Shown: in pieces, positions 4,978 through 22,023 of the stretch
Layout: each line of letters starts with the position of its first letter
Position numbering within the stretch: position 1 is the first letter of the stretch
DNA from: Candidatus Micrarchaeota archaeon
GTDB lineage: Archaea > Micrarchaeota > Micrarchaeia > Micrarchaeales > CABMGC01
Reading direction: 5' to 3'
Assembly (NCBI GenBank): GCA_030040595.1
Contig: JASHTL010000064.1
Span: 1 to 32,858 of the forward strand
Length of the DNA stretch: 32,858 nt
Made by a program: the position numbers and the translations under genes
The notes under the pieces: generated by a model
Databases searched by the model: none
Told to the model about the DNA's origin: nothing
What the model saw: only the letters and a program-made list of their open reading frames with translations

Positions 4978-5041
4978 CAAAAGCGAACTTTCGCGCAGTG
5001 ATTATAAACGCTTTCGGCAAGAATAATATCAAGGCATCTCC

Positions 5042-5710
5042 ATGGCGCAGCAACAAAACACTCCTACGGCAACGGGCCAGCCGGCAGGCCAGCAGGGCCA
5101 GGACAGGACCCGCCTTTACATAATAATAGGCATCATAGTAGCGGTAATCGTAGCCCTGATACTTCTGGGGATATACTTCTCCTCATCTGGCGTTCCGGCG
5201 CTTACGCAGACCGCATCGCAGAACTCCACCTCAATACCGATGGGCTCGGCCCAGGCGCAGACCCTGCTGGGGTCTTCCCTTATCAACTACAGCGTCTCGG
5301 ACCTTTTCAACCCGGCATCGCCTCTGAACATGTCCGACCTGATATCGGTTGTCCCGCAGCTATACGACAATGCGACCAGCGGGTGGATCACAGTTGCACA
5401 GGGATCCAACGCAACCTCGAACGCCAGCATCGAGTATATTGCCATCACGACCTCGAACGTGCAGACGATCTCGAGCCTGCTCGGTTCGGCATCGGTCTCT
5501 GGGCTTCCAATGACCGAGGAGAAGACCAACACGGGCAGCGTGAACGGGTTTGCCTACACGTACTGGCTCTATTCCAATTCCACCGCCAACATGCAGGTGC
5601 TCTCCGGATGGAAGAACAACGACGCAGCTATAGCTATAATCCTCTCAAATCCTCCATTCACGGTGAACGAGACCGCGCTGGTAAGCGCAGTGGCGAACGA
5701 CACCCCGTGA
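5042..5710 (+). CDS. Hypothetical membrane-anchored surface protein
   Basis: Single N-terminal TM (LYIIIGIIVAVIVALILLGIYF) followed by an S/T/N-rich domain with sequons. Confidence 0.75.
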   Translation: MAQQQNTPTATGQPAGQQGQDRTRLYIIIGIIVAVIVALILLGIYFSSSGVPALTQTASQNSTSIPMGSAQAQTLLGSSLINYSVSDLFNPASPLNMSDLISVVPQLYDNATSGWITVAQGSNATSNASIEYIAITTSNVQTISSLLGSASVSGLPMTEEKTNTGSVNGFAYTYWLYSNSTANMQVLSGWKNNDAAIAIILSNPPFTVNETALVSAVANDTP

Positions 5711-6850: not shown

Positions 6851-6950
6851 GCTCGCAATTAGCCATATCAGATTAATATATCTATTCGGGCTTGATGCAC
6901 CTGGCAACGCGCATCGAGGCGGTTTGCGATGCCGCCTATTGCGATCCTCA

Positions 6951-7520
6951 TCACAGTTCACCGTATCTGAAGCAATAGGTCATGTGGTCATTGACCATGC
7001 CCGTGGCCTGCATGTGCGCATAGCATATCGTGGTGCCAACGAAGCTGAATCCTCTTTTCTTGAGGTCCTTGCTCAGCGAATCGGACTCCGCTGTGCTCGC
7101 AGGCACCTGGTCCATGCTCCTCCACCTGTTCCTTATCGGCTTGCCCCTGACGAACTTCCATATGTAAGAGTTGAAGCTGCCGAACTCTTCCTGCACCTTG
7201 AGGAAGCATTTTGCGTTGTTCACCGCAGACTCTATCTTCAGCCTGTTCCTTATTATCCCGGCATCATTAAGCAGGTTCTTTATCATCGGGCCTGTGAATA
7301 CGGCTACTTTCCCAGGATCAAAGCCGCTGAAAGCCTTCCTGTACCCTTCGCGCCGGCTGAGTATCGTGAACCAGCTAAGCCCTGCCTGCGCGCCCTCGAG
7401 CACAAGGAATTCGAAAATTCTCCTGTCATCATGTACGGGCACGCCCCACTCCGTATCATGGTACCTTATGTAGAGGGGATCTGTATTGGACCACTCGCAG
7501 CGCCTTATTTCTTTTGCCAT
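6951..7520 (-). CDS. tag: DNA-3-methyladenine glycosylase I
   Basis: RCEW, YHDTEWG, LEGAQAGLSW, IIRNRLKI, FVGTTICYAHMQATGMVNDH motifs. Confidence 0.95.
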   Translation of the reverse strand: MAKEIRRCEWSNTDPLYIRYHDTEWGVPVHDDRRIFEFLVLEGAQAGLSWFTILSRREGYRKAFSGFDPGKVAVFTGPMIKNLLNDAGIIRNRLKIESAVNNAKCFLKVQEEFGSFNSYIWKFVRGKPIRNRWRSMDQVPASTAESDSLSKDLKKRGFSFVGTTICYAHMQATGMVNDHMTYCFRYGEL

Positions 7521-8926
7521 CGTTCACGCCCTTCCTCGTTGCCTTTAATCGCCGCCCTGTTCTCCTTGCCCCTGGCATATGATAGAACCGCAGCTATGAA
7601 GAGCACGATTATCGAGAGCACCAGCGCGGCGTCTATCCCTGTGATGAATGCGGTGGAGACGCCGCCTATGAGCTTGGATGTCCCAAGGAAGATCGAAAAT
7701 GCTATTGGCCTTGAGACCGCGAGCGATGCCACGGTGAGTATTATCACGTAGCTGGCAAGCGTGCCTATGTTCTGCATCAGCCGTGAGAGCCCGGATATGC
7801 TGCCGTAATGCTCGCGCTGGGCATTGGCCATTATCGCGCTCATGTTTGCAGGGAAGAACATCGAGACCCCGATTCCCGATATGAACGACGCAACGAGTAT
7901 TATGTAAAGGCTGCTTGTAGCGGTCAGCGTAAGGTAGATGGCCACTGTCGCCATCATCAGGATAAGCCCCACAGTCGCTATTATGCGCGCACCATGGGTA
8001 TCAGAGAGCCTGCCCATCTTCGGCCCCACTATTGCCGTTATTATGTAACCCGGAGTCAGCAGGAGCGAGGCATCGAGCGGGTTAAGTCCCCTGACGCCCT
8101 GCAGGTACATTATGATTATGAAGACAACGCCAAGGTACCCTAGGCTCATGAAGAATGTCGCAAGGATGGAGTAGGTGAGCACCCGGTTTCCCTTGAAGAT
8201 TCCGAGGTTCATGAGGGGGCTCTTGCTCCTTATCTCGACAATGAAGAAGAGGCCCAGGACAACAACTCCCGCTGCCATCAGGCCGATGTTGAGCGGAGTA
8301 GCTCCCTGTCCCGCAATGTCTATAGCACCATATGCTATCAGGAGCAGCGATGAAGTAAGCGTGACCATGCCTGGCCAGTCGATCTGCGCCTTGATCCGCT
8401 GATTGTCCTTTATGTACCTAATTCCATAATACGTTGCAACTATGCCGATCGGCACGTTTATGTAGAATATGTACTGCCACCCTGCGAAAGTGGTCAGGAC
8501 TCCGCCGAGGAGAATGCCGAGCATTGCGCCAAAGCTCCACCCGACTGAGGTATAGCCGAATGCGCGGCCGCGCTGGTGCGGCTCGAACGTGTCTGCTATT
8601 ATGGCTCCGGAGTTGGCCTGGAGCATGGCGCCGCCTGTTCCCTGGATGATCCTGAAGAGTATCAGGAAGATGATTCCGGGGGCAAGCCCGCAGAGGAAAG
8701 AGCCTATTGTGAAAACGGCGAATCCAAGGTTGAATATCCTGCCACGGCCGTATATGTCGCCTATCCTGCCAAACTGGGTCGTGGCAACCGCTATGACAAG
8801 CAGGTATGCAAGGATTATCCAGACCGATAATACCAGGTTGGTGTGAAGTGCCTGGTTGATGGTAGGCAGCGCGAGCAGCACTATGGTAGTGTCTATGGCG
8901 CCCATGAGCACCCCCAGCACAAGCAC
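7505..8926 (-). CDS. MFS drug/H+ antiporter (DHA2/EmrB-like, about 14 TM)
   Basis: DTTIVLLALP, GRIGDIYGR motif A, RIIQGTGG, WQYIFYINVPIG. The true start may be a few codons further upstream. Confidence 0.9.
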   Translation of the reverse strand: MLVLGVLMGAIDTTIVLLALPTINQALHTNLVLSVWIILAYLLVIAVATTQFGRIGDIYGRGRIFNLGFAVFTIGSFLCGLAPGIIFLILFRIIQGTGGAMLQANSGAIIADTFEPHQRGRAFGYTSVGWSFGAMLGILLGGVLTTFAGWQYIFYINVPIGIVATYYGIRYIKDNQRIKAQIDWPGMVTLTSSLLLIAYGAIDIAGQGATPLNIGLMAAGVVVLGLFFIVEIRSKSPLMNLGIFKGNRVLTYSILATFFMSLGYLGVVFIIIMYLQGVRGLNPLDASLLLTPGYIITAIVGPKMGRLSDTHGARIIATVGLILMMATVAIYLTLTATSSLYIILVASFISGIGVSMFFPANMSAIMANAQREHYGSISGLSRLMQNIGTLASYVIILTVASLAVSRPIAFSIFLGTSKLIGGVSTAFITGIDAALVLSIIVLFIAAVLSYARGKENRAAIKGNEEGRERWQKK

Positions 8927-9108
8927 TGCAAGTATCTTGCCTTGATTGTTCAGAATAACACCTTTATTTTTGCGGCTGACCGCCTTGGGCTACCAGCCGG
9001 CATGAAAACTATGCTACTAGAAAATTATAAACCTACCGCAGGAATGCCCCCTGTGTTTGCGAAACGATTGGATTGTTTCTAATACCTTATTGTGGCATAT
9101 GTAATTGA

Positions 9109-9933
9109 GTGATTTCCATGGCCAATGCCGAAATGATAAAATACAAGACACAGGTTGGCAACGACATATACGCATACCTGGCAAGACCTGACGGTGAGGA
9201 AAAGCTGCCAGGCGTCGTGCTGATACACGAGATATTTGGGCTAAGCGGCCATGTCAAGGCCGTTGCTGACAGGATAGCAAAAGAGGGCTATGTGGTCCTG
9301 GCTCCCCATCTCTATTCATTCAGCCCTGAGATCTCCTCTGTCTTCTCAGATCAGAATCTGGCTGCGACTATGCGCTTCATGGGGAAAATCCCAAGGGAGA
9401 AGATGCGCGATCAGGAGTTCGTCCAAGGAGAGCTCTCAAAAGTGCCTTCACCGGAACGCGAGACGGTGCAGAGGGTCATGGGAATGATGTTCGGAGGGCT
9501 CCCTATGGACAAGCTGACCACGGCAGGGGTGGACGGCGTGGAGTACCTTAGGTCGCAGGATTACGTCAATGGTGATAGGATAGGCACAATCGGCTTCTGC
9601 TTTGGAGGCGGCATCTCGGTAAACATAGCATGCAACACGAGGACAGCTGCGTGCATAATCTTCTACGGAAACAACCCCTCGCCAATAGAGCTCGTGGAGA
9701 AGATCCAATGCCCGGTGATGGGGCTGTACGGAGCAGAGGACATGCACATCAATGCAAACCTTGACAAGCTTACGGCAGCTATGGCAAAATACCGGAAGGA
9801 CTTCGAGATGAGGATATATCCGGGAGCCGCGCATGCGTTCTTCAACAACACCAACAGGCAGGTGTACAACAGCGCGGCGGCGAAGGATTCGTGGAAGAGG
9901 GTAAAGGGGTTCTTCAAGCGCACGCTTAAATGA
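9109..9933 (+). CDS. Dienelactone hydrolase family protein
   Basis: IHEIFGL, GFCFGG nucleophile elbow, YPGAAHAF. Confidence 0.92.
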   Translation: MISMANAEMIKYKTQVGNDIYAYLARPDGEEKLPGVVLIHEIFGLSGHVKAVADRIAKEGYVVLAPHLYSFSPEISSVFSDQNLAATMRFMGKIPREKMRDQEFVQGELSKVPSPERETVQRVMGMMFGGLPMDKLTTAGVDGVEYLRSQDYVNGDRIGTIGFCFGGGISVNIACNTRTAACIIFYGNNPSPIELVEKIQCPVMGLYGAEDMHINANLDKLTAAMAKYRKDFEMRIYPGAAHAFFNNTNRQVYNSAAAKDSWKRVKGFFKRTLK

Positions 9934-9939
9934 CGATAT

Positions 9940-10314
9940 TCACTTCCTGATCCTGAGGTAGTCGGTATCGTCGAAGGCGAGGGCCATCGCCAGAAGCAGT
10001 ATCGCAAGGTCCCTTATCACGATGTCGTTGAATCCGAAGTAGTAGGTTACCGAAACTACTATCGAAAGCATGATCAGCGAGGCAATCACGGCCATGGCCC
10101 TGAGATAAAGGCCAAGGAGCACGGCTATTCCCACTATGACCAGAACCACTCCGTGTATCATGACAAAAGTGTTTATGGCTATGAATGCTGAGAAGAACGG
10201 AGGGACATACGAGGCCCAATAGCTTGGCTGCACAATCTCCCATATGCCTATGCCTACGAAGACTACGGCAAGGCCAAGGCGCATCAGCAGATGGCGTATC
10301 TGTGAGTTCTTCAC
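9940..10314 (-). CDS. DoxX-family membrane protein
   Basis: LMRLGLAVVFVGIG...LLGLYLR...RDLAILL; four TM. Confidence 0.75.
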   Translation of the reverse strand: MKNSQIRHLLMRLGLAVVFVGIGIWEIVQPSYWASYVPPFFSAFIAINTFVMIHGVVLVIVGIAVLLGLYLRAMAVIASLIMLSIVVSVTYYFGFNDIVIRDLAILLLAMALAFDDTDYLRIRK

Positions 10315-10326
10315 CGGCTTACCCCT

Positions 10327-10908
10327 TCAGCTGCTCTTGTTGGAAGTCGGCGGAACAGTTGGCGTTGGCAGCGTGACTATATACCATACGCCTCCAACTC
10401 CCTCGCCGGTTATTGTGCCTGATGCCTTGTCCTGGGCATAGTAGTAGAGAGGCCACCCGTCATACGCGAGCTGTTTCTCGCCGCCTGTTCTTGTTATAGT
10501 GGAGAACTCAGAGATGTTTACCCCGGCAGGCACTTCAAGCGTGTAGTTTCCCGACACTATGAACGGCGGCCAGATGGTTGCGCATGAACCATAGCACGCG
10601 CTCGAGTTGCTGTACTGCTTGTCAGGAGTGTAAAGATACAGGGTCCATCCGGTGGCGTTGGAAAGGTAATAACCGTAGGTTGTGTTGTAAGCAGCGGTGA
10701 ATCTGTAAACTGTGCTCGTGCCTGCCGCGGTTGCCGTAGTAGCTGCGCTTGTAGCTCCTGCTCCTATCACGGCAGGCGAGGTAGTGGCCGGCGCCGAAGC
10801 CGACGTAGTGCTGTAAGAAGTCGCGGGCTGGTGGTATGCCAGGTACGCCGCTGCCGCTATTATCACTACAACAACAATTATCGCTCCCACAATGGCTGCA
10901 ATATTCAT
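10327..10908 (-). CDS. Membrane-anchored COG4315/Lipoprotein_15-repeat protein
   Basis: GWTLYLYTPD, SACYGSCATIWPP, QLAYDGWPLYYYAQD, GEGVGGVWY. Confidence 0.85.
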   Translation of the reverse strand: MNIAAIVGAIIVVVVIIAAAAYLAYHQPATSYSTTSASAPATTSPAVIGAGATSAATTATAAGTSTVYRFTAAYNTTYGYYLSNATGWTLYLYTPDKQYSNSSACYGSCATIWPPFIVSGNYTLEVPAGVNISEFSTITRTGGEKQLAYDGWPLYYYAQDKASGTITGEGVGGVWYIVTLPTPTVPPTSNKSS

Positions 10909-10966
10909 GCAATCCCGTTACATATGCTCGCATTGTAAATATAAACCTAGCAGGATATGCGGGTTG

Positions 10967-11581
10967 CTATGCCTTCTTGTCGCGCGCCTCCCTGAGCGCC
11001 CTCGCCATCCAGAGCAGGTCCTCCATGAAGACCGCTAGGTGATCCAGTCCCAGGCTTCCGTCCCTGAGCGGAGCGAAGAGCTCCTCGTTCGATATGTTCG
11101 GGTTGCCAGCCAGCTTCCCCGTGATGCTCTGGCCTATGTGTATGGCCCTGCTTATGGGCACTCCCCTGAGCTCTATAACAACCTCGCGGAGCTGCTCCAC
11201 GGCCCTGGCCCCGCTTACGCTCCCATAGCTCACAAATCCTATTGGTTTCCTGTTCCATTCGGGATACGTCCAGTCGATCGCGTTCTTCAGCTGACCCGGA
11301 TAGCCGTGATTGTACTCCGGCGAGATTATTATAAACGCATCGGCCTCTTCAAGCTTATCAGCCCATCTCTGCACGTCCTCATTCGGGTACTTCCTGGCGA
11401 GCATCTTCGGCGAAGTAGGCAGGTCATACCACGGCAGTTGGTAATCCTTGATGTCCAGAAGCTCAGCGTCCACTCCTTCCCACGCCTTGAGCTGCCCCTC
11501 GATCCACCTGGCCGGCCTTTCACCGAACCTCTTCTGCCTTACGCTTCCCAGTATTATCTTTATTCTTATCTTCTCATCCAT
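10967..11581 (-). CDS. NADPH-dependent FMN reductase
   Basis: ILGSVR, SPEYNHGYPGQLKNAID, KPIGFVSYG. Confidence 0.92.
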   Translation of the reverse strand: MDEKIRIKIILGSVRQKRFGERPARWIEGQLKAWEGVDAELLDIKDYQLPWYDLPTSPKMLARKYPNEDVQRWADKLEEADAFIIISPEYNHGYPGQLKNAIDWTYPEWNRKPIGFVSYGSVSGARAVEQLREVVIELRGVPISRAIHIGQSITGKLAGNPNISNEELFAPLRDGSLGLDHLAVFMEDLLWMARALREARDKKA

Positions 11582-11863
11582 GCTCTAGCCTCTTTACCCA
11601 TACAATATACGCATGCAAGATATATAAATATAGCACGTCCTATACCACAGCCGCTCAACAGGGAAGGAAACAAGGCCGGGCTGCCCTTCCGAATCCGCCT
11701 GACGGCGGATAACCTCATGGGCTATTGGAATACCGATGAAAATGAGACCGGGCACATAATGCGCATTTCTGACGTCAGAAACGTGCTGAAAAAGCGAAAT
11801 GAAAACCTAAGCATCGCGATGCCTTTTTATAGGACGGGTCTCAACTAAATGTTTGGCGAGTAT

Positions 11864-12651: not shown

Positions 12652-13185
12652 TCACTTCCTCTTAGTTATCACACTGCCTTTTGACTCTTTTATTTCCTGC
12701 TCCATCGCGCTTATTTCAGGAATTGCGGCCTTAGGAACCCTGTCATGCCACCTCCTTCCCTTCTTTATTATGTTCCTGATTTTTGTGGCCGAGAGTCTTC
12801 TCCTGTCATACCATTTCGGCGATATGACGCGTATGCCGTGATCCCTGAAGATCCTCTTCACCAGTTTTGTCTGCGAGAAGACAACGTCTATCCCTGGGTC
12901 ATTTCTGATTATGTAACTGAACCACTTATCGTTGTCGTTGAAATCAGGTATCATAAGAAACCTCACGCGTCTCTGGAACGCAGGGCCCTTAATCGCAGAC
13001 CTTATTATCCGTATGCGGTCCATCGCGGAAAGAGGATTTATCTCTGTTCCGGATTCCTGCGCGCTGCCCACCCCAATAACAACCTTGTCGCACATGCTTA
13101 GGGCTACCAACAACGCCTTCATGTGACCTTTGTGCAGCGGCTGGAACCTGCCGATGAACAGGCCATTGCTGAACTTCCTGGGCAT
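12652..13185 (-). CDS. Nicotinamide-nucleotide adenylyltransferase (archaeal NadM-like)
   Basis: GLFIGRFQPLHKGH, GVGSAQ, NPLSA, LSATKIR, W...VP. Confidence 0.88.
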   Translation of the reverse strand: MPRKFSNGLFIGRFQPLHKGHMKALLVALSMCDKVVIGVGSAQESGTEINPLSAMDRIRIIRSAIKGPAFQRRVRFLMIPDFNDNDKWFSYIIRNDPGIDVVFSQTKLVKRIFRDHGIRVISPKWYDRRRLSATKIRNIIKKGRRWHDRVPKAAIPEISAMEQEIKESKGSVITKRK

Positions 13186-13257
13186 GCATTTATACGATAA
13201 CATGCATGCTTTATATTGGAATGTATGGGGCCTATACGGAAATGAACATTCCTAATA

Positions 13258-14349
13258 TCAGGATGACCCGTACCTTAATACGGCTTCTGACTCGAGGAAA
13301 TCTCCATATCTGCTGGCCGATTCCCTTATGCCAGCAACTTGTTCTCTTGTAAACTTTCTGAATGGGGTTACAGTTACAACAGACTTTCCCTTATCATTGG
13401 ATCTCTTCCATGTACCTACAACCTTTCCATCGGATATTACCATTGGCAGGAAGAGAAGCGTTGAACCGTTGATTATCTTCTTCGCGTATTTTGGCTCCAG
13501 CACGTCGCTGCGGTCGCTGTACGATATTATATACTCGTCGAATGAGGGGAGCAAGTAGACGGAACCCGCGTTCCGAGCGGATATGCCGGTTTTCCTTGAC
13601 ATCCAGTAGCTCTTTCCGGACAGCTCTACCTCTTTTAGGTTGGATTTTATGCTCTCGATCCCGACCTTCGCCTCTGATATTCTGAGGCCAGACCACCATG
13701 CGAAGTCCTTTATTGTCGCAGGGCCATGGCTCTCAAAGTACACTGAAGCAAATTTGGCTAGAGACGTCTCACGATTGTAAGTATTGGCATCAGGCACCAT
13801 CACGTTCAGCAATTTGAATGCGGGCTGGTTGCCAACGTATCCGCTGAAACAGATTATGCCTCTTCTTCCCGCCCTTCTGGTTATGTGCCTCTGCACTTCC
13901 GTATTCCTGAGTTCGGGAATGCCGGATCGTGAAAGAATGCCGCCCAACTCCTTATAGGTCAGCTGCTCATCGCCCTCGAATGCGTCCCGCACTATTTCAA
14001 GCCCTCTTTTGAGCATACGTTCTGTAAGACCATTCCTGCGCTGGTAGCTCGGGATGGACTCATCCGGATAGAGGCTCAGCATCCATCTGACTTCCAGCGG
14101 CGGGACAAAGTGCCATGTGCCCCGCATTGACCAGGTCCTTATTATCTTCTTATTCGCTATCGCATCCTCTACCTCTGATTGCGTCGCACTCCTGCAACGG
14201 AGGCCTACGGCCCATAGCGCGTCCCTATACGCCTGCGCCTGCAGCGCGCCCAGGGACTTGACAACGCCGACCGGACCTGACGCTACTACTGAAGAGATAT
14301 GCTGGTTGGCGAGCCTGGCATAGGGTATATCCTGAAGATCCATCATCAA
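13258..14349 (-). CDS. AlkZ/HTH_42-family DNA glycosylase (QxQ type)
   Basis: LQAQ, RTWSMRGTWHFV, HGPATIKDFAWWSGL, LLPSFDEY, DGKVVGTW. Confidence 0.88.
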   Translation of the reverse strand: MMMDLQDIPYARLANQHISSVVASGPVGVVKSLGALQAQAYRDALWAVGLRCRSATQSEVEDAIANKKIIRTWSMRGTWHFVPPLEVRWMLSLYPDESIPSYQRRNGLTERMLKRGLEIVRDAFEGDEQLTYKELGGILSRSGIPELRNTEVQRHITRRAGRRGIICFSGYVGNQPAFKLLNVMVPDANTYNRETSLAKFASVYFESHGPATIKDFAWWSGLRISEAKVGIESIKSNLKEVELSGKSYWMSRKTGISARNAGSVYLLPSFDEYIISYSDRSDVLEPKYAKKIINGSTLLFLPMVISDGKVVGTWKRSNDKGKSVVTVTPFRKFTREQVAGIRESASRYGDFLESEAVLRYGSS

Positions 14350-14394
14350 TTACTCCGTTCTAAAGCTTAAAAACAGGAGGCCTCAAGAGCCGTA

Positions 14395-15519
14395 TCAGAA
14401 GTGATGGCCTATCGGAACTGTCGTCGTAGGCCTGATGGTAGTGGTGGTCGTGCTGGTAGTGGCTGCCTTCGGTTCCGAGACCGTGAAGCTAGTTCCGTCA
14501 GTGCTTAGGGCTGAAGGCGTTGCCAGCGTGGTCAGGGTCCTTCCATTCTCGCTGACCATGGTTATGGAGGTGACGCCAGGCATGCTGCTTATCGGCTCAG
14601 TGCCTGAGCCCATGTTCGCAAAATTGGTTCCAGGCACGCCGGTGTTGTCGCTGCCGTAGTAAGCGGTGCCGAAGCTTGCGAGCGTGGTGAGCGAGCACGA
14701 TGATCCCGAGCATAATTCAGGCCTCTCCTCGACCCAGTCAGAAGACTTCTGCGATGAGCTGTATGTCACGATGATGCTGAATCCTTTGTGCTGCGTCACG
14801 TCCACAAGCGTTACGTTCCATTCATCCGAAGTGCCAGGCACCTGGGTGACGCTTGCGTTTATTATGTCACCTGGAGAGACGGATATTCCTGATATTGGGG
14901 TCTCGGCAGCTGGTAGTACTTCGTACCATGCTGTGTAATGCGCTGCGCCATCGTAGTAGTCAGACTCTGTGCCCGTCTGCACCAGGGTGTCGTCGCTGTA
15001 CCCTCCTATCCCGATCCATTCTGATGAGTATGTCGCGCTTGAAGTTGATCCTGGAGCCTGTACGACCCAAGAGCCCTTTACCGATGTCGTTACAGGCGAG
15101 CTTGACGTTCCGACATAGCCTGCCCAGTTAAGGGACTCTACCTGGTTCACCAGGCTCTTTCCCTCTGTGATGGCGCCGGAGTAGGAGAGACCGCTCGGCT
15201 GGCAGTTGTATATGCCATTGGTATAGTTACCGTTCGTGCCAGCCTGCAGGCTGCATGGCGAGACCACATTCTTGTAATTCTGGCTGTACGCGTTGCCGAG
15301 ACCGAACACCTTGTTGTCACCAACATATGTGTACGGTGTGCTTTGGCTTATTGTTACGTTATTAACCATGTCCGATATGTTGCCGTGCTGAAGCTGTGGG
15401 CCTGGAAACTGTGCAAGCTGGGACCCTAGAATGCCGGAATAGCCCGTTGCCACCACAAAAGTCGCGCTAAATACCGCAGCCAAGGCCATGACAAAAAGTT
15501 TGTTTTTGAGAGCACCCAT
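14395..15519 (-). CDS. Secreted G1-family glutamic peptidase (eqolisin-like)
   Basis: Signal peptide; SLNWAGY, WIGIGG, LVQTGT (catalytic Q), AWYE, DWVEERP (catalytic E); Thr-rich tail. Confidence 0.88.
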   Translation of the reverse strand: MGALKNKLFVMALAAVFSATFVVATGYSGILGSQLAQFPGPQLQHGNISDMVNNVTISQSTPYTYVGDNKVFGLGNAYSQNYKNVVSPCSLQAGTNGNYTNGIYNCQPSGLSYSGAITEGKSLVNQVESLNWAGYVGTSSSPVTTSVKGSWVVQAPGSTSSATYSSEWIGIGGYSDDTLVQTGTESDYYDGAAHYTAWYEVLPAAETPISGISVSPGDIINASVTQVPGTSDEWNVTLVDVTQHKGFSIIVTYSSSQKSSDWVEERPELCSGSSCSLTTLASFGTAYYGSDNTGVPGTNFANMGSGTEPISSMPGVTSITMVSENGRTLTTLATPSALSTDGTSFTVSEPKAATTSTTTTTIRPTTTVPIGHHF

Positions 15520-15566
15520 CCCACAGCACCTTGCTCTCTATTAAGATCCCTAGGTATTTAAAAGTT

Positions 15567-15578
15567 TTGGACTCGGCG
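15567..15578 (-). repeat. Exact direct copy of the tRNA-Ala 3' end (att-like)
   Basis: TTGGACTCGGCG is identical to 19103-19114 and is intergenic. Confidence 0.85.
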
Positions 15579-15595
15579 CCTCTGTAGCGCTTCTT

Positions 15596-16090
15596 CTAGG
15601 TTCTAAATGCTGCCTTCACGTGATCTATGGCTTCCTCCGGGGTGCTTGCACTTTGTATTTCCCGGAAAGACTGGCTAAGCTGCCTGAAGAAAGCTATACT
15701 CTCCGAGCTATTCCCCAACAGTATGACGGGCTTTCCCTCTTTTATGCCCAGGGCCGCTTCGCTGGCAGTGCCCGGATTCATGCCTACTACCACCAACGCG
15801 TCGCTGGTAAGCACATTGATGCAGTTTCTCGCCTGCTCCATGTTTGTTACGATTGGTATGTCCAAATGTTGAGACCAGTCTGAAGTGTTGCTGTTTGGAA
15901 GTATGCCTACGGTAAGGCCTCCCTCCTCATGCGCACCTCTCATCGCAGCCCCCATGACGCCGGCTTCCCTTCCCCCACTCAGGGTCACCCATCCGTTCCT
16001 TGCTATCAGCCTGCCGACCGCGTATGCATTATCGGTGTGCGGTTGAGTAGCATCTCCTGGTCCCATTACTCCAACTATGCGCTGCCTCAC
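15596..16090 (-). CDS. TIGR00725 / SLOG (LOG-like) family protein
   Basis: IVGVMG, LSGGREAGVMGAAMRGA, GGLTVGILP, ARN..NVLTSD, GTASE. Confidence 0.88.
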   Translation of the reverse strand: MRQRIVGVMGPGDATQPHTDNAYAVGRLIARNGWVTLSGGREAGVMGAAMRGAHEEGGLTVGILPNSNTSDWSQHLDIPIVTNMEQARNCINVLTSDALVVVGMNPGTASEAALGIKEGKPVILLGNSSESIAFFRQLSQSFREIQSASTPEEAIDHVKAAFRT

Positions 16091-16144
16091 ACAATCCCCG
16101 GGAATTTAATGATTATCCTGATATTTAAAGCAGCCGTTTCGGGC

Positions 16145-16154
16145 TTGCACTCGG
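16145..16154 (-). repeat. Degenerate tRNA-Ala 3'-end repeat
   Basis: TTGCACTCGG versus TTGGACTCGG (9/10), located between the TIGR00725 and fic units. Confidence 0.5.
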
Positions 16155-16163
16155 ATCACCACT

Positions 16164-16283
16164 TTACCCTTACATTTCATTATAAATTCAATATTTATAC
16201 AAATATGTGAGGGTAATAATGTTATTCGCTATTACCCTTACTTTAAATTAGAAAAGTAACTATTTATATATTTGTAAGGGTAA
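16164..16283 (+). promoter_or_regulatory. Tandem pair of inverted-repeat operators, each enclosing a TATA box, upstream of fic
   Basis: TTACCCTTACA-N31-TGTGAGGGTAA (16164-16216) and TTACCCTTACT-N30-TGTAAGGGTAA (16232-16283). Each spacer contains TATTTATA. Confidence 0.7.
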
Positions 16284-16292
16284 GTACCAGAT

Positions 16293-17189
16293 ATGGTTGT
16301 TATAAAGAAAAAGCAGATAGGCGACAAAACCTACTATTATCTTGGACATACGTATCGCCAACAAGGCAAAGTAAGGTACAAAGAGACATACCTAGGAAAT
16401 AAGGTACCTGCTGACATCGAAAATGTAAAGAAAGGATTCCTACAGCAACTATACAAGGAAAAATGGTTTGGCCTGTTTGAAAAGATAAAATTGGAATATG
16501 CTAAAGATCTCAAGAAAACACCGCCAGAAGTGTTAGAAAAGAATCTAGAAGCATTTATGATATCATTTACGTATAACACCAACAGAATAGAAGGCTCAAA
16601 ATTATCCCTCAAAGACACTGCATTGCTGTTGGAACATGGAATAACCCCTAAAGGCAGGCCCATTGGGGATGTAAAGGAAACTGAAGCACATAGAAAAGTA
16701 TTCTATGAGATGTTGGAATATGAAGGAGACTTATCCATAGGGATACTGCTCAAATGGCATAGAGAGTTATTTGGCGAGACAAAACCCGAAATAGCGGGTA
16801 AGATAAGAGATTACCAAGTCTATATTACTGGAACCAGATATAAACCCCCAAGCGCAATTGAGGTTCAGGCATACATCCTAGAGTTCTTCAGATGGTACAA
16901 CAGGGAAAAGAGTGCATTGAACCCTGTCGAACTTGCGGCTCTTATCCATGTAAAGTTTGAGGCAATTCACCCATTTGGTGATGGTAACGGCAGAATTGGA
17001 AGACTAATCATGAACTTCGTATTGCATAAGAACGATTACCCGATGTTAAACATACCATATACAAATAGGCTAGGTTATTATAACGCACTTGAAAAAGCGC
17101 AGATAAAAAAAACAGATTCAATCTTTGTCTTGTGGTTCTTCAGAAGGTACCTAAAAGAATGCGGCACGTATCTGCCAAGAAGTAAGTAA
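16293..17189 (+). CDS. Fic-family protein with N-terminal basic beta-rich putative DNA-binding domain
   Basis: Canonical HPFGDGNGRIGR; N-terminal autoinhibitory motif TNRIEG; KKKQIGDKTYYYLGHTYR...YLG N-terminus. Confidence 0.93.
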   Translation: MVVIKKKQIGDKTYYYLGHTYRQQGKVRYKETYLGNKVPADIENVKKGFLQQLYKEKWFGLFEKIKLEYAKDLKKTPPEVLEKNLEAFMISFTYNTNRIEGSKLSLKDTALLLEHGITPKGRPIGDVKETEAHRKVFYEMLEYEGDLSIGILLKWHRELFGETKPEIAGKIRDYQVYITGTRYKPPSAIEVQAYILEFFRWYNREKSALNPVELAALIHVKFEAIHPFGDGNGRIGRLIMNFVLHKNDYPMLNIPYTNRLGYYNALEKAQIKKTDSIFVLWFFRRYLKECGTYLPRSK

Positions 17190-17219
17190 ACTATTTCGCA
17201 CCAAGTTAAATGGACGTAG

Positions 17220-17230
17220 TGGACTCGGCG
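17220..17230 (-). repeat. Exact direct copy of the tRNA-Ala 3' end
   Basis: TGGACTCGGCG is identical to 19104-19114. It is preceded by ACGTA, as at the tRNA itself. Confidence 0.85.
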
Positions 17231-17300
17231 AAACCAGCAAATGAGTATGATGTAAGAACAACATTAGATAATGGTGTTTAATAGTACTTGATAGTATTCA

Positions 17301-17687
17301 CTAGCATTCTATTGTCTTGACTCCGGCTTTTCTAGCAAGGTTTGCCTGATTATTGTCGCAGGTCACTAATTCGTAAGCATTCTTTAGTGCTGCAGCTACA
17401 AACATAGCATCATATATCGACGAATTGTATTTCCTAGCAATTTCAAAGGCCTTACTCGTATGTTTTCTTTCCTCTATAAACCTAAAGGTATCAGGGTACC
17501 TCTCGAGAATCTCGACTGCCTTCTTATATTCAAGCTCATTCTTACGGACTTTTTTCAGAAGTGCGCTGCCTAGCTCTATCATGGAAAGTTCTATGCTTAT
17601 TGGTTCGTAGAGATACTTTTCAACCTCTTCCCATCCTGGCTCTTCTGAAAAGTACTTGACAATAACGGAGCTATCAATAAGCCTCAT
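17301..17687 (-). CDS. vapC: VapC/PIN-domain toxin
   Basis: LIDSSVIVK, E in SMIEL, IYDAMFVAAA, LVTCD; overlaps the upstream antitoxin. Confidence 0.9.
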   Translation of the reverse strand: MRLIDSSVIVKYFSEEPGWEEVEKYLYEPISIELSMIELGSALLKKVRKNELEYKKAVEILERYPDTFRFIEERKHTSKAFEIARKYNSSIYDAMFVAAALKNAYELVTCDNNQANLARKAGVKTIEC

Positions 17688-17892
17688 TTCTATCCTCCCT
17701 TATTGATTTCACCGCGAATCCGGCTTTAGATGGTTTTGAGGTTTTAATAATTTCTTTCAATTCGAGTAAGACTTTTTTGGCATTTGCCTTCCATGCAATA
17801 TCCTCTATGTATTCTTTTGGGTTTATGCCAGCCCTTTTGAGCTGTTCTGCAGTGCCACGCCTTACTCTAATACTGATTACTTCGGTGTCCAT
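17674..17892 (-). CDS. Antitoxin (VapB-like, RHH-type)
   Basis: 72 aa, N-terminal TEVISIRV strand, C-terminal SIREDR, 14-nt overlap with vapC, TTTATATA box upstream. Confidence 0.8.
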   Translation of the reverse strand: MDTEVISIRVRRGTAEQLKRAGINPKEYIEDIAWKANAKKVLLELKEIIKTSKPSKAGFAVKSIREDRNEAY

Positions 17893-17958
17893 GATTATAT
17901 GTCAGCATACAGATATATAAACATTTCTGTTTACTTAGTCGATTACACAAATACCAGA

Positions 17959-17967
17959 TGGGCTCGG
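17959..17967 (-). repeat. Degenerate tRNA-Ala 3'-end repeat
   Basis: TGGGCTCGG versus TGGACTCGG (8/9), located between the vapBC and ribokinase units. Confidence 0.4.
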
Positions 17968-18042
17968 TTATGGAAGATCTTCAAGTAATGGTTGTACTTT
18001 CACAATCGATAACTGGACATTCTATATATTTTTTGCAGGTGC

Positions 18043-18954
18043 TTACCTTTGCATATACGTGTCCACTTCAGAACGAACAGGTAAAGAAGAAGACGCTCCT
18101 AAACGCTGGACACTTAGTGCCGCAGCTTTATTGGCAAAGCTGAGTGCATCATTCAACGATTTTTGTTCTGACAATGCAACTGCAAAAGCCCCAGCAAAGC
18201 AATCACCTGCAGCAGTAGTATCAATTGCATTTACTTTAATCCCTTCCACTCTGACTTCTCCATGCTGATTAATACAGAGCGCACCTTTTGCACCCAAAGT
18301 AACAATTATTGTCTGGTCTTTCCTAGCTTTTACTTTATTTGCATAGTTTTTAATGGTCTCTATGTCCTCAGTAACTGTTTTGTTTGCAAAGAAGGCAACC
18401 TCATGCTCATTTACTATTAAATAATCTGCAAGGATAAGGAGCTCTTTAGAGCATTTCGCAGCTGGTGCTGGGTTAAGTATCGTCTTAGCGCCTGCGATCT
18501 TGGCTCTTTTGAAGAGTGATAGTATTGTTTCTTGTGGTATCTCGAATTGTGATAAGAGAATGTCAGAGCTGCCCAGCTTTATTGAAGATACATCATCAGC
18601 AGATACTTTGGCATTGCTTCCAAGGACTACCACTATTGAGTTTTGCGAATCTTTATCAACACATATAATAGCCGTGCCAGTTGGTGTGCCCTTTGTAAAT
18701 CTTATCCCATCGACCTTCATCTTTTCCTTTTTCAAGACTTCATATATTGACCTTCCAAAATCATCTTCTCCCACCCTGCCTATGAATTCTACGTTACCAT
18801 TAAGTCTGCTTGCCGCAATTGCCTGGTTAGAACCCTTACCACCAAGTATAAAATGAAGACTATCCCCCAGTACTGTTTCACCCGGTTTTGGCATTTTATC
18901 TGTTCTAGTGACAACATCCATGTTAATGCTGCCAACAACGACTATCTTCCCCAT
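18043..18954 (-). CDS. rbsK: Ribokinase
   Basis: VVGSINMD, GGKGSNQA, GRVGEDDFG, ILNPAPA, NEHE, DTTAAGDCF. Confidence 0.92.
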   Translation of the reverse strand: MGKIVVVGSINMDVVTRTDKMPKPGETVLGDSLHFILGGKGSNQAIAASRLNGNVEFIGRVGEDDFGRSIYEVLKKEKMKVDGIRFTKGTPTGTAIICVDKDSQNSIVVVLGSNAKVSADDVSSIKLGSSDILLSQFEIPQETILSLFKRAKIAGAKTILNPAPAAKCSKELLILADYLIVNEHEVAFFANKTVTEDIETIKNYANKVKARKDQTIIVTLGAKGALCINQHGEVRVEGIKVNAIDTTAAGDCFAGAFAVALSEQKSLNDALSFANKAAALSVQRLGASSSLPVRSEVDTYMQR

Positions 18955-19103
18955 TTATTTGCCTCGATACCTTACTTATGATTGTTAATAATTAAGATAC
19001 TATCTTACTCTGGACAGATCGACGCAGGATTCCCATACCATGTATCATAAGCTTTATATCATTTTCAGGGGTCCACTGCGCCAGTCCACAAAGGAAACGT
19101 AAT

Positions 19104-19177
19104 TGGACTCGGCGGGATTCGAACCCGCGACCTCGCCGTTGCGAACGGCGCGCAAACTACCGCTGTGCTACGAGCCC
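19104..19177 (-). tRNA. tRNA-Ala (anticodon CGC), intronless, CCA not encoded
   Basis: GGGCTCG/CGAGTCC acceptor with G3.U70 and A73; CGCCG-TTCGCAA-CGGCG anticodon arm; GCGGG-TTCGAAT-CCCGC T arm. Confidence 0.95.
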
Positions 19178-20178
19178 TTTGGTAATAGTCTACCTGTCTT
19201 TATCCATTGGCCATACCTTTCTTTTATCAAAGGATGCGATGTACCTATATTGTACATCCATCTTCTTATATTCCTATTACCACGCAAAACTACGTCTCCC
19301 GAGTCTCGTTTATTTTGCCAATGAACATATGCTGGGAAATCTAAATTGTTTAGTAATTCTCCCATATCATAAAGGAACGACTTACTCCCACTAGATATTT
19401 TAAGTTCTAGATATTTGTAATCCTCGTCTTTTCTCGCGTATAGACAACCATCTGTATCAAGCAAACCACGCAACACTGACGCTTTAACATCTATTGGACT
19501 ATTGAATATCTGCTCTGTTATTCTCAATTTATTCTTCTTTTCACCTATGGGCATACCTAATGAATTAAAATAATCGAATATTAGTCTACTTTTTATCGGA
19601 ATGCCTATTACGTGTTCACTTGATCGTTTATAATAGTAACCCGATAAATTAAACCTCCTCTGTAAAATTGGTATTACATAATCTAGATAATAATGTAAAT
19701 CGTCGGTCATATTCCCAGTAAATAAGGTCTGATAGCACCAACGGTTTTCGTATGTAGAGAAAAATTTTGACAAGCATCCATCTCCCATGCAAATGCCTAC
19801 CAACTCCCATATTTGCGGATCCACCTGCGGTAAGTCCACTGTATGTCTAAAACTTCTAACGAATGCCATTCTTGAGTTTATCTGATTTTTATATTTCCTA
19901 TAAGATTCTAGACCTCCGAGGCGGTTTCCCCAATTGGAAGGATAGGTTTCTATGCCCTTTGAAACTTTTCTTTTAATATCTGGCGAAGATATGTCCAGAA
20001 GTTCATTAAAAACCTCTTCAGGTATAAGTCTAGTACCAGAACACCAATTCTTAACTGCAGAATAACCGTACCCTAATTTTTTACTTAGGTCTATTATAGA
20101 AATTTGATTATCTTGCAGAATATTGTCAAATAAGAGTGCTCGTGATTCATCATTAAGTCTTATTCTATCCCCACCCAT
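19168..20178 (-). CDS. Free-standing HTH + double-LAGLIDADG endonuclease-like protein overlapping the tRNA 5' end
   Basis: N-terminal HTH (ISIIDLSKKLGYGYSAVKNW); motifs ELVGICMGDGCL and VLRGLLDTDGCL; AT-rich; TATAAATA about 30 nt upstream; stop TAG is tRNA positions 8-10. Confidence 0.85.
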   Translation of the reverse strand: MGGDRIRLNDESRALLFDNILQDNQISIIDLSKKLGYGYSAVKNWCSGTRLIPEEVFNELLDISSPDIKRKVSKGIETYPSNWGNRLGGLESYRKYKNQINSRMAFVRSFRHTVDLPQVDPQIWELVGICMGDGCLSKFFSTYENRWCYQTLFTGNMTDDLHYYLDYVIPILQRRFNLSGYYYKRSSEHVIGIPIKSRLIFDYFNSLGMPIGEKKNKLRITEQIFNSPIDVKASVLRGLLDTDGCLYARKDEDYKYLELKISSGSKSFLYDMGELLNNLDFPAYVHWQNKRDSGDVVLRGNRNIRRWMYNIGTSHPLIKERYGQWIKTGRLLPKGS

Positions 20179-20289
20179 TCAGATCCGATTATAATAAAAA
20201 CCTCAGATTATTTATACCATTGGACAGCGTGGCTGACAAAGATATCAAGCGTTATAAGCTTTACATTGGGAAGTAATATCGGTGCGCCA

Positions 20290-20622
20290 ATGGCAGTGCA
20301 ATATCTGGGGTACATACTGATCGGGCTGGGCATAGCGATAATACTGCTTGCCCTGGTCCTCGGATACGGGGTCTACATAAGCGCGAGCGGAAACATCAAC
20401 AGCGCTGCGCTTGCCAGTCCAAGCAGAAACAGCACGATCAACGGCTCAGTGAGCACGCTCGCCAGCAACCTTCAGAATACCGCTACCGTAGGAACGTACA
20501 CTGCAATAGAGATAGCAGTGCTCTTCCTGATAGCATCGATAGGGTACAAGCTTTCGTACCTCGGGCTGCAGATGAACGGCAGGCAGAGCACGCCGGGCAA
20601 GCAGGCCAAAATGAACGATTGA
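20290..20622 (+). CDS. Small two-TM membrane protein
   Basis: Two hydrophobic helices; GGTG RBS at 20281; first gene of the cca cluster. Confidence 0.7.
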   Translation: MAVQYLGYILIGLGIAIILLALVLGYGVYISASGNINSAALASPSRNSTINGSVSTLASNLQNTATVGTYTAIEIAVLFLIASIGYKLSYLGLQMNGRQSTPGKQAKMND

Positions 20623-20643
20623 TTCGGGAAACAGGTTGAGAAC

Positions 20644-22023
20644 ATGGAAGTCAGGAAGATAAGAAAGGCTGAGCAGGTATTCGCGCGTGCGCTCTCCGAG
20701 GTAAAGCCAAGTGCCGTAGAGACTAACGCAACCATAGCGAGCATAAACACGGTAATGCACAGGCTCGGCAAGATCGTCGACAACGGCGTAGAGCTCAAGG
20801 TCGTCGGCTCCATAGCCAGGGGCACAAACCTCAAAGGCGATTCCGATGTGGACATATTCGTACTGTTCCACAAGAAAACCGACACGAAGGAGCTTGTGAA
20901 GAAGGGCCTGGCATACGGAAAAATCCTTGCAAGCGGCAAGCGCGACAGGTATGAGATAAAGTACGCGGAACATCCGTACATAAGGATCTACCTTGACGAG
21001 CTCGCGGTCAGGATAGACCTGGTGCCGGCGCTGAAGATAGACAGCATAGAGGAGATGGGCACCACAGTGGACAGGACGCCGATGCATGCTGATTTCATAA
21101 ACTCCAACCTAAGCGAGAAGCAGAGGGACGAGGCGCGCGTGCTCAAGTACCTGCTCAAGGAACACAACATATACGGTGCGGAGGTAAAGGTTGGCGGATT
21201 CCCCGGATACCTGTGCGAGATACTGATATACCAGTTCGGTTCGCTGCTCAGGCTTCTAGATAACGCGGCAATGTTCAGCCTTCCCGTCATACTCGACCCG
21301 AAAACGAAGAACAAGCTCAGCGACAAGTCCATTGCAAAGAGGTTCAGCTCCGATTTCGTGGTAATAGACCCTGTCGATCCTGACAGGAATGTCGCAGCCG
21401 GCGTATCTCAGGAATCGCTGGCGAGATTCGTGCTCCTGGCACGCCGCTTCGTCGCAGATCCGAGCATGAAATGCTTCTACGGGCAAGGTTTCTCCGACAC
21501 GTCTGCTAGGAACATGGTCGGCAGGTTCGTGAAAAGCTCCGGCCTGTCAGTGTATCTACTCTCCGCAAAGGTCCCTGATAAGAGCGAGGATGTGGTCTGG
21601 CCGCAGCTAAGGAAGGTTGCAAACATGGTTGCGGAACTGGCCTCGCGCTACGATTACGAAATCTACCTTACAATACCATGGATAGCGAACGGGTCAGGAA
21701 ACGTACTCTTTATAATGCCCGACTCAAGGGTCAGGGCCCGCATGCTTAAAGGCCCCGATGTCTTCATGCGCGACGCATCTAACAATTTCATAAAGACGCA
21801 CAAGGCCGCAATGGGCACGATTATCAGGGGATCATCCATCTACACCATAGAGAGGAACAGGTACCAGAGCATGGAGGACTTCCTGAGAGGAGTGCTCAAG
21901 AACGGAACGGTGGTAAGGCACAAGGACATAAATCTCAAGTCCGCTAAGCTCTACATCAATAAGATACCAAAGGAGCTCTCGGAGAGCGCCTATTCCGAGA
22001 TACTTAAGCGGATAACCCTGTAG
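20644..22023 (+). CDS. cca: Archaeal class I CCA-adding enzyme
   Basis: VGSIARGTNLKGDSDVDIF, YAEHPY, VDRTPMH, YGAE...GGFPGYLCE, IDPVDPDRNVAA. Confidence 0.96.
   Translation: MEVRKIRKAEQVFARALSEVKPSAVETNATIASINTVMHRLGKIVDNGVELKVVGSIARGTNLKGDSDVDIFVLFHKKTDTKELVKKGLAYGKILASGKRDRYEIKYAEHPYIRIYLDELAVRIDLVPALKIDSIEEMGTTVDRTPMHADFINSNLSEKQRDEARVLKYLLKEHNIYGAEVKVGGFPGYLCEILIYQFGSLLRLLDNAAMFSLPVILDPKTKNKLSDKSIAKRFSSDFVVIDPVDPDRNVAAGVSQESLARFVLLARRFVADPSMKCFYGQGFSDTSARNMVGRFVKSSGLSVYLLSAKVPDKSEDVVWPQLRKVANMVAELASRYDYEIYLTIPWIANGSGNVLFIMPDSRVRARMLKGPDVFMRDASNNFIKTHKAAMGTIIRGSSIYTIERNRYQSMEDFLRGVLKNGTVVRHKDINLKSAKLYINKIPKELSESAYSEILKRITL

Follow-up and report, generated by a model that had tools for sequence, protein, structure and literature searches.

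Tandem accretion and cis-mobilizable elements (CIMEs) are known from bacterial families of integrative and conjugative elements and of integrative and mobilizable elements (PMC5704250, the part available). For integrated elements of archaea, tandem integration and loss of the integrase have been described (PMC8371274, part of the text), and tRNA fragments are regarded as products of element integration (PMC9897764, part of the text). Here we describe the region downstream of the tRNA-Ala(CGC) gene in a 32,858-bp stretch of DNA from a Candidatus Micrarchaeota archaeon, called the window below. The window is one whole contig (C53; JASHTL010000064.1) of assembly GCA_030040595.1 (G000), which comprises 948,909 bp in 120 contigs and is 82.6% complete. 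Copies of the last 11 nt of the tRNA gene, the core, lie between small gene units in the 3.6 kb which follow the tRNA: a ribokinase gene, a vapBC toxin-antitoxin pair, a Fic gene and a SLOG gene. We hold it to be somewhat better than an even chance that these units, which have no recombinase of their own, accreted through site-specific recombination at the 3' end of the tRNA gene.

The likeness to CIMEs lies in att-type repeats of the 3' end of the target gene, in the lack of integrase and transfer genes, in the tandem stack at one tRNA gene and in the toxin-antitoxin genes, a typical cargo (PMC5704250, as far as the available part goes). The units described here are archaeal, and most spacings are 0.25-1.9 kb, whereas CIMEs in that part of the source measure kilobases to tens of kilobases. 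The locus further differs in that the block of identity is only about 11 nt, that a common arm of about 75 nt follows unrelated cargo, and that no cognate integrase-bearing partner was seen in this 82.6%-complete assembly.

In archaeal "gene capture" by SSV-type or pNOB8-type tyrosine integrases, integration into the 3' part of the tRNA leaves partial tRNA copies (PMC8371274 and PMC7253208, both in part), and a homologous array in the relative G040 does contain SSV/pNOB8-like integrases. Unlike such captures, the window has no int(N) or int(C) pieces, all of its cores being intergenic; its repeats are 11-12 nt against 32-52 nt in G040, and the cargo consists of single genes or pairs. As in tRNA-targeting genomic islands, repeats of a tRNA 3' segment in the same orientation bound an insert and leave the tRNA intact, and the insert looks foreign by its low GC and by the patchy distribution of vapBC, SLOG and ribokinase genes, the SLOG gene being host-like in GC. 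Such an island differs in having an integrase gene inside, as the array of G040 has.

Integrons, and clusters of attC sites lacking integron-integrases (CALINs), share with the locus the arrays of single genes and toxin-antitoxin pairs, the conserved site after each and the frequent lack of a linked integrase (PMC9668308, the part available). Unlike in an integron, no IntI was found and a tRNA gene takes the place of attI. Nor do the units look like promoterless cassettes in one orientation, the Fic gene lying on the opposite strand and TATA-like sequences being visible by eye. The attC sites of integrons are imperfect palindromes of 57-141 nt with R and L boxes; the punctuating element here does not appear to be such a long palindrome and combines tRNA sequence with a short hairpin. 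The term "integron-like", used in an earlier note made from the sequence of this DNA, is therefore an analogy only. Transposons and casposons differ from the units in that the unit ends have no inverted repeats and the unit genes no transposase-like Pfam match; no search aimed at Cas1 was made. A literature search gave no account of tRNA-anchored arm/core cassette arrays in Micrarchaeota, and the supplementary tables of PMC9668308 and PMC9897764, of which the main texts were available in part, might list such loci.

Repeats and units in the window

In the reading favoured here, unit 1 (ribokinase) would extend from 19103 to 17968, unit 2 (vapBC) from 17958 to 17231 and unit 3 (inverted Fic gene and SLOG gene, possibly two units) from 17219 to 15579. 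The features of the array are the following.

15567-15578, minus strand: distal exact core, a 12-mer identical to 19103-19114; followed on the minus strand by TATA-like TTTTAAATA and the peptidase A4 gene
15596-16090, minus strand: TIGR00725/SLOG cluster-4 protein (Pfam LDcluster4 1e-48; TIGR00725 107.1 bits, cut-off 106.9)
16145-16154, minus strand: possible degenerate core, 9 of 10 nt, at a GC boundary; not above chance
16293-17189, plus strand: Fic-domain protein, cargo of unit 3, inverted relative to the tRNA (Pfam Fic 9e-23)
17220-17230, minus strand: exact core ending unit 2, identical to the last 11 nt of the tRNA
17231-17304, minus strand: left arm with a small hairpin and the conserved 20-mer TTACATCATACTCATTTGCT (nhmmer and Infernal profile)
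17301-17687, minus strand: VapC PIN toxin, cargo of unit 2 (Pfam PIN 1.8e-15)
17674-17892, minus strand: VapB antitoxin, cargo of unit 2 (NCBIfam VapB family 37.6 bits, below the 60-bit cut-off)
17959-17967, minus strand: decayed core (TGGGCTCGG on the plus strand) between units 1 and 2; aligns with tRNA-Ala 3' fragments in G009, G085 and G084
17978-18057, minus strand: arm-like end of unit 1 (79% identical to a stretch of G004, L017 7064-7141; arm profile match at L017 7134-7199)
18043-18954, minus strand: bacterial-type ribokinase (PfkB), cargo of unit 1 (Pfam PfkB 1.2e-70; TIGR02152 343.8 bits, cut-off 299.65)
19053-19103, minus strand: conserved stretch directly 3' of the tRNA (tRNA-Ala flanks of G004, L017 5833-5957, 82%, and G003, L020 386-508, 79%)
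19104-19177, minus strand: intact tRNA-Ala(CGC), its last 11 nt at 19104-19114 on the plus strand (ARAGORN; Rfam RF00005 58 bits)

The earlier note had reported copies of the tRNA end between the genes, and three exact ones stand: TGGACTCGGCG occurs on the plus strand at 15568-15578, 17220-17230 and 19104-19114, always between genes, and the 12-mer TTGGACTCGGCG is identical at 15567-15578 and 19103-19114. Elsewhere in the window there is no copy, even when one mismatch is allowed. The genome-wide count suggested in that note shows the word to be rare, with four exact copies in the whole assembly (three in the window and one at C100:12761) and 22 scattered copies with one mismatch. The two additional copies that had been reported with one mismatch, at 17959-17967 and 16145-16154, have a single mismatch only over 9 and 10 nt, and three each over the full 11-mer. 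The former (TGGGCTCGG) aligns in alignment A2 with TGGACTCGGCAGGAATCGCACCCGCGGC of the tRNA-Ala 3' fragment, at least 26 nt long, that borders the vapBC block on the corresponding side in the relative G009, and by this homology we take it to be real. A 10-mer with at most one mismatch is expected about 0.1 times in 3.6 kb of one strand, and the copy at 16145 is not above chance, which makes the division into four units proposed earlier uncertain at that boundary.

The statement that exact 11-mers so close together are unlikely by chance is correct for the word itself and needs a reservation. Under a first-order Markov model the expected number of exact copies is 0.0145 for both strands of the window and 0.00086 for same-strand copies within 4 kb; when one mismatch was allowed, 1 of 100 shuffles reached three matches. 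Three further exact direct repeats of 11-12 nt, each in two copies (D9, D13 and D14), lie in the same 3.9 kb, so a pair of 11-mers alone is unremarkable. What stands out is the exact anchoring of three copies at the tRNA end, taken with the comparative evidence below. When the tRNA with 60 nt was compared by short-word BLAST with nine loci from relatives and with the window, 5 of 12 short matches fell on the last 11-14 nt of the tRNA, and these five were all downstream and in tRNA orientation (two in the window, one each in G007, G004 and G008).

Domain searches of the unit genes agree with the identities given earlier (rbsK, vapBC, fic, TIGR00725), and the mixed orientation and uneven GC hold as well: the Fic gene is on the plus strand and the other unit genes on the minus strand, GC is 0.34-0.42 from about 16100 to 20250 and 0.50-0.57 in the flanks, and the SLOG gene is host-like at 0.50-0.54. 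TATA-like sequences were seen by eye upstream of every unit. Rfam (E <= 1, 14000-21000) gave nothing beyond the tRNA and an antisense chance match to it.

A conserved element of arms and core

The core at 17220 lies within a conserved element of about 125 nt composed of an arm, the tRNA-end core and a second arm. Read in tRNA orientation it begins with a short hairpin (CACCATTA..TAATGGTG) and a 20-mer (consensus TGTACATCATACTCAATTGC), followed after about 5 nt by the core G(C/T)CGAGTCCA; a right arm (TTTTCGCTTTACGAGGAAGC...) comes after the core in many copies. A model of the element (R1, for nhmmer and Infernal) was built from alignment A3, which holds 11 copies from 9 genomes with the window's own included. 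The element was found in 27 of 151 genomes of the order (13/75 and 13/74 in two large families), with 1-3 copies per genome which are often clustered about 0.8-1.6 kb apart. Of the 20 element loci fetched, 14 have a tRNA-Ala gene (CGC, TGC or GGC) in the orientation of the element and 0.6-4.6 kb upstream of it, and in the other six a contig end intervenes on the side where the tRNA is expected. The cargo ahead of the element varies (VapC, a second pair of ribbon-helix-helix (RHH) antitoxin and PIN toxin called PIN type 2, Fic, other small genes), and in 17 arrays the spacings between exact cores range from 254 to 4392 nt, 7 of 16 being 750-1104 nt (the two spacings of the window included).

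Core and right arm stand at the 3' end of the tRNA itself in four loci, and the layout is therefore tRNA.core-right arm-genes-left arm.core. By analogy this would be the attL/attR layout that results when a circle carrying left arm, core and right arm integrates. Unit 1 of the window also ends in an arm and a decayed core, since 17978-18057 is 79% identical to a stretch of G004 which abuts a core and right arm.

The arms have a mean identity of 64% over about 130 nt and are nearly identical within one genome (G085a and G085b). The arm hairpin of about 10 bp has 81.7% of its cells paired and four pairs with double changes, a result equalled by 26-29 of 500 shuffles; RNAalifold found no consensus pair in the arm alignment, and the covariation support for the hairpin is weak. 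The right arm (TTTTCGCTTTACGAGGAAGCATGGTATGAATCC) may be a decayed older copy of the 3' half of tRNA-Ala, as judged from an alignment by eye. A motif similar to it, TTTACGAG, follows the tRNA-Val gene on contig C45, which argues that the right arm belongs to the elements. That TTTACGAG is a general tRNA trailer was considered and rejected, as one of 34 tRNA flanks contains it and its genome-wide count is 20, where about 29 are expected. The arms were also considered as coding sequence: by eye the consensus has an ATG in frame with the core, and this was dropped because the spacing in the window differs by 1 nt from that in G085 and the frame is lost.

A scan of metagenomes for the pattern gave two loci, one a chance match (L083) and one in which the end of a Fic gene is followed by arm, core and then ordinary genes (L082). 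In viral contigs neither the arm-plus-core pattern nor a relative of VapC was found.

The locus in relatives

The aligned tRNA-Ala loci of relatives agree with repeated insertion at this place. When 10 kb of DNA was used as query against 40 relatives, the 5' side of the tRNA (from 20246 onward, with the CCA-adding enzyme and beyond) was found to be conserved across the genus, and the 3' side was different in every species compared. Genome G038, flagged as unpublished, supports none of the statements made here. In G007 the AlkZ gene comes 43 nt after the tRNA; G009 and G010 have about 10 kb with further partial tRNA-Ala copies ahead of a CTP-transferase gene; and in G004 the tRNA is followed by other small genes and a Fic gene.

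The tRNA-Ala(CGC) gene of G009 (L013, G009:C21, 4825-4926) matches the window tRNA in two pieces about 50 nt apart and was missed by ARAGORN in default mode; an intron is probable. With introns allowed, two further tRNA-Ala genes beside arrays were miscalled "Cys".

The vapBC unit gives the clearest picture of a unit which has spread. Of 248 genomes of the order, 19, G000 counted, have matches to the block (17237-17967) at E <= 1e-10, and in six besides G000, from five genera and two families, it is 83-86% identical at the nucleotide level. Between the window and G040, VapC and VapB are 87.5% and 88.9% identical in amino acids and the neighbouring CCA-adding enzyme 35%. The junctions were read from three- and seven-way alignments. 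On the vapC side the homology runs to a core of the TGGACTCG type and then stops in five of the seven aligned copies; on the vapB side a tRNA fragment marks its end in four of the seven, and the tRNA-Ala fragments of G009, G085 and G084 align exactly with 17959-17967 of the window. Judged from these alignments, the vapBC unit is a discrete block which moves horizontally and is bounded by cores. It has the CIME feature of cores at both ends (17959-17967 decayed, 17220-17230 exact) with nothing but VapBC inside.

In run X1 of a peat metagenome, the summed contig depth over the vapBC-ribokinase stretch (17260-18963) was 14.8-21.6 against 6.7-9.6 in the flanks, about twofold, and variant contigs of this stretch occur at about 91-93% identity. 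Related copies of the units are thus indicated in other genomes or strains of that sample. A contig of 417 nt from X1 has a vapC end about 91% identical and its own TGGACTCGGGG; its match to the window stops at 17234.

The cargo of other arrays is of the same kind. The families that recur among the 114 open reading frames (ORFs) of 24 arrays are PIN type 2 (11), Fic (7), VapC (5), VapB (4), RHH antitoxin (4) and a pair of 91-aa and 120-aa proteins (3 each), and Fic homologs form a separate unit in 7 of the 24 tRNA-linked arrays examined. That the units behave as separate modules, as first proposed, is borne out by these Fic units and by a vapBC block which is common to two families and whose homology ends at the repeats. 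For the SLOG gene there are matches in only four of the 40 relatives, all at 30-36% identity, and no close homolog in any. G000 has two PfkB kinases, of which the array copy is accessory and 43% identical to the genus-wide ortholog (C23:7877-8794). A close homolog of the array ribokinase was found in only one of the 40 relatives (G008:C111, 67%); together with the score above the cut-off of the bacterial ribokinase model (TIGR02152), this suggests that the gene was gained from bacteria. Contig C111 has neither an arm nor a tRNA fragment, so unit 1 is defined only by its arm-like end.

Upstream of the Fic gene, 16164-16283 contains nested inverted and direct repeats (TTACCCTTACA / TGTAAGGGTAA and GTGAGGGTAATA / TATTACCCTTAC) which look like operator sites of an autoregulated Fic gene.

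Other tRNA genes of the genome

The screen of the other tRNAs for the same architecture gave repeat-bounded inserts at tRNA-Ser, tRNA-Thr and tRNA-Val genes. Two of the 34 tRNAs of G000 have downstream copies of their last 11 nt on the same strand, the tRNA-Ala described here and a tRNA-Ser(GCT) on contig C86 (2611-2696, minus strand). The last 11-12 nt of the latter recur, with TTTATAT as a shared flank, at 2064 and 1292 (array C86:1292-2696); one of the two units consists of an RHH antitoxin and a PIN toxin, the other of a 134-aa ORF, and the PIN family is also present in 10 tRNA-Ala arrays of other genomes. Two more cases came from a scan of all 11-mers of 29 tRNAs. At tRNA-Thr(GGT) (C75:6257-7614) an 11-nt repeat surrounds a one-gene insert of 1.27 kb with a GC of 0.405 against 0.476 for the contig, and at tRNA-Val(TAC) (C45:4733-6551) an exact repeat of 11 nt (17 nt with two mismatches) surrounds a 1.75-kb insert with a GC of 0.36 against 0.474.

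Recombinases

The absence of a recombinase gene from the window, already pointed out in the earlier note, extends to the assembly: profile searches of G000 gave no match to Phage_integrase, Phage_integr_3 or Resolvase (PF00589, PF16795, PF00239) in this 82.6%-complete sequence, and Y1_Tnp (PF01797) reached only 15.9 bits, below threshold. A tblastn search of the window with the two integrases of G040 gave no remnant, only a stretch encoded by the tRNA at E 7.5. Seventeen of the 18 arm-bearing genomes have no PF00589 gene on the array contig within 50 kb; in G164 integrases lie on the array contig at distances of 54 kb and 297 kb. Five of the genomes (G000, G002, G094, G215 and G174; 82-93% complete, three of them 90-93%) have no PF00589 match in the whole assembly.

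The only genome of the 18 with integrases inside the array is G040. Its array (L014, G040:C16:54000-68000, 3992-11664) has two tyrosine integrase genes, 5210-6193 and 9780-10628, which are 71% identical, and three partial tRNA-Ala copies of 32-52 nt, with the same vapBC block just past the last of these. The N-terminus of ORF 5210-6193 is read through a tRNA fragment, as in SSV-type integrases where att is inside the gene. Behind the 11-mer copy of G007 lies a flank similar to the stretch which encodes the N-terminus of the G040 integrase; this flank is a probable integrase remnant. Ordinary integrase-bearing elements thus use the tRNA-Ala site in this lineage. One element of the G040 array carries in addition a radical-SAM gene and a gene for a 641-aa protein.

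How the array may have arisen

The proposal of the earlier note that the repeats mark repeated insertion at the tRNA-Ala 3' end is supported by the position-specific copies in relatives and with the vapBC homology ending at cores. In the model which we prefer, the crossover would fall inside the terminal ~11 nt of the tRNA gene (positions ~63-73), and each integration would leave another core downstream while rebuilding an intact tRNA. Units 1 and 2 would end in the conserved arm beside a core (tRNA.core-genes-arm.core), equivalent to attL and attR. The enzyme would be a tyrosine integrase acting in trans, supplied for example by integrase-bearing elements like those sharing the array of G040.

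Several observations speak against this model, besides the three unrelated repeat pairs mentioned above. No excision product, empty site or unit-lacking strain was seen. The contigs of four runs from the peat metagenome (X1-X4, one study) that cover 13000-21500 show no joints, empty site or circle junction, but such contigs drop rare variants and are uninformative on mobility. The assembly being 82.6% complete, an integrase could lie in the missing part. The Fic gene is inverted and has no arm, and the SLOG gene has host-like GC and no arm, its stop codon being only 17 nt away from the core. On the vapB side the junction is not at a core in G092, G040 and G232, a tRNA copy being found 83-176 nt further on in G092 and G040, and only 8 of 15 vapBC loci have a tRNA-Ala fragment within about 1.5 kb of flank. 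The AlkZ gene is within a core-bounded segment in G007 and outside the array here. Finally, the stretch that adjoins the tRNA 3' end (19053-19103) has conserved counterparts in G004 and G003, and is either an arm derived from elements and common to related units or an old native flank; in the latter case unit 1 did not insert between tRNA and flank, contrary to what the simple model demands.

The alternative that survives best is that of decayed tandem islands, which we think unlikely. It considers the units to be stubs of larger virus- or plasmid-like elements with integrases of their own, of which toxin-antitoxin genes were kept as addictive. Such a history is suggested by the G040 array, where two integrase genes and the long tRNA copies adjoin the same vapBC block, by the flank in G007 which looks like a remnant, and by the fact that integrated archaeal elements are often found without an integrase, presumably lost (PMC8371274, the part available). 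The ends of large elements would not look like G084, where the element follows three consecutive small units (988, 2081 and 2901), or like G092, where the same is seen. The vapBC block ends alike in several genomes, which is not expected from independent decay; the window has no integrase remnant; and the lack of PF00589 genes near 17 of the 18 arm-bearing arrays, and from five whole assemblies, also goes against decay.

Homologous cassette exchange would need no site-specific enzyme, the ~125-nt elements and the tRNA gene serving as portable homology. We regard it as quite improbable, although the arms are similar enough to make it conceivable (above all the nearly identical ones of G085a and G085b), five arm-bearing genomes have no detected recombinase, and contigs often break at arrays. 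The vapBC homology stops at the 10-11-nt core and not at variable points inside the arms, and the repeats at tRNA-Ser, at tRNA-Thr and at the distal copy (15568) comprise only 11-12 nt and have no arm. Repeats of this size fall below the length that homologous exchange typically needs.

A true integron or CALIN, with an IntI-type integrase working on attC-like sites and the tRNA end as attI, is very improbable. The archaeal integrons reported by Ghaly et al. are mostly CALINs in which toxin-antitoxin cassettes are common, and their main text contains the words "Micrarchaeota" and "tRNA" 0 times each (PMC9668308). The units here share with them single genes, toxin-antitoxin pairs and a conserved site after each, but G000 has no PF00589 match, the orientation is mixed with TATA-like sequences (by eye) before the units, the arm hairpin is only about 10 bp with weak covariation, and the core is tRNA sequence.

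That break repair driven by a LAGLIDADG protein made the repeats, as the earlier note had offered as an option, is extremely improbable: an ORF of this type (19168-20178) does abut the 5' end of the tRNA, with a 52% identical homolog in the same position in G065, but it is on the other side of the tRNA, is absent beside the tRNA in G004, G008, G010 and G007 despite core copies or variable 3' regions there, occurs in one of the other fetched loci (~560 kb), and is missing at the tRNA-Ser, tRNA-Thr and tRNA-Val repeats. Chance recurrence of the 11-mer in an AT-rich island, for which one might cite the other repeat pairs and the single shuffle with three one-mismatch matches, is negligible given the low expectation for this specific word and copies which are specific in position and orientation and recur in relatives and at other tRNAs.

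Within the preferred model, accretion at the tRNA end, the arm behind consecutive small units and the identical vapBC ends favour units which were always non-autonomous and move with an enzyme supplied in trans, and G040 and G007 keep alive the alternative of stubs left by larger elements. That the units in the window are still able to move is somewhat doubtful. What is unusual about the locus is the combination of very small units, an 11-nt block of identity, a common arm behind unrelated cargo, occurrence in two families and no linked recombinase. A more far-reaching idea, which we rate as rather unlikely, is that Micrarchaeota have an unreported tRNA-anchored cassette platform in which, by analogy with integrons, the arm (~75 nt) and the 10-12-nt core would act as attC and the tRNA end as attI, and in which an unlinked recombinase, possibly one from outside the cell (from a virus, a plasmid or the host archaeon, for example), would capture units, stack them and pass them between genera. 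The same logic, with other cores, may apply at the tRNA-Ser, tRNA-Thr and tRNA-Val genes of G000.

Flanking genes

The genes which surround the array are given below.

13258-14349, minus strand: AlkZ-like glycosylase (Pfam/NCBIfam and ORF list)
14395-15519, minus strand: peptidase A4 (Pfam/NCBIfam and ORF list)
19168-20178, minus strand: LAGLIDADG_3 ORF (Pfam)
20644-22023, plus strand: CCA-adding enzyme (Pfam/NCBIfam and ORF list)

No core-like sequence was seen by eye in the intergenic stretches 13204-13257 and 14350-14394. The LAGLIDADG_3 ORF (336 aa) is part of an insertion, 19181-20245, on the 5' side of the tRNA, and its stop codon is within the first 10 nt of the tRNA gene. In G004, G008 and G010, which like G007 lack the ORF, the tRNA is about 18 nt from the homolog of 20246, and the homolog in G065 (L059 3086-3796) is the only one among the ~560 kb of loci fetched. 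From its sequence and position the ORF looks like a free-standing homing-endonuclease gene which targets the region upstream of tRNA-Ala, and its insertion must have displaced the tRNA promoter.

Significance

Archaea of the DPANN group, Micrarchaeota among them, rely on other cells and have genomes of about 1 Mb, and little is understood of the ways in which they acquire and exchange genes. The locus and its counterparts in 27 of 151 genomes point to a compact and repeatable entry of defence, addiction and metabolic genes at tRNA genes, with one or two genes per unit, the units carrying a recognisable sequence tag and no linked recombinase. The arm-plus-core element could serve as an annotation marker for such islands in metagenome-assembled genomes, in which these regions often break the assembly (6 of the 20 loci). 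If the units are mobile, they would represent a simple form of natural gene capture in a lineage for which no such system has been characterised, and the arm with its 11-nt core would provide a concrete site for tracing the enzyme. If they are fossils, the locus records the reduction of integrated elements to toxin-antitoxin and Fic genes.

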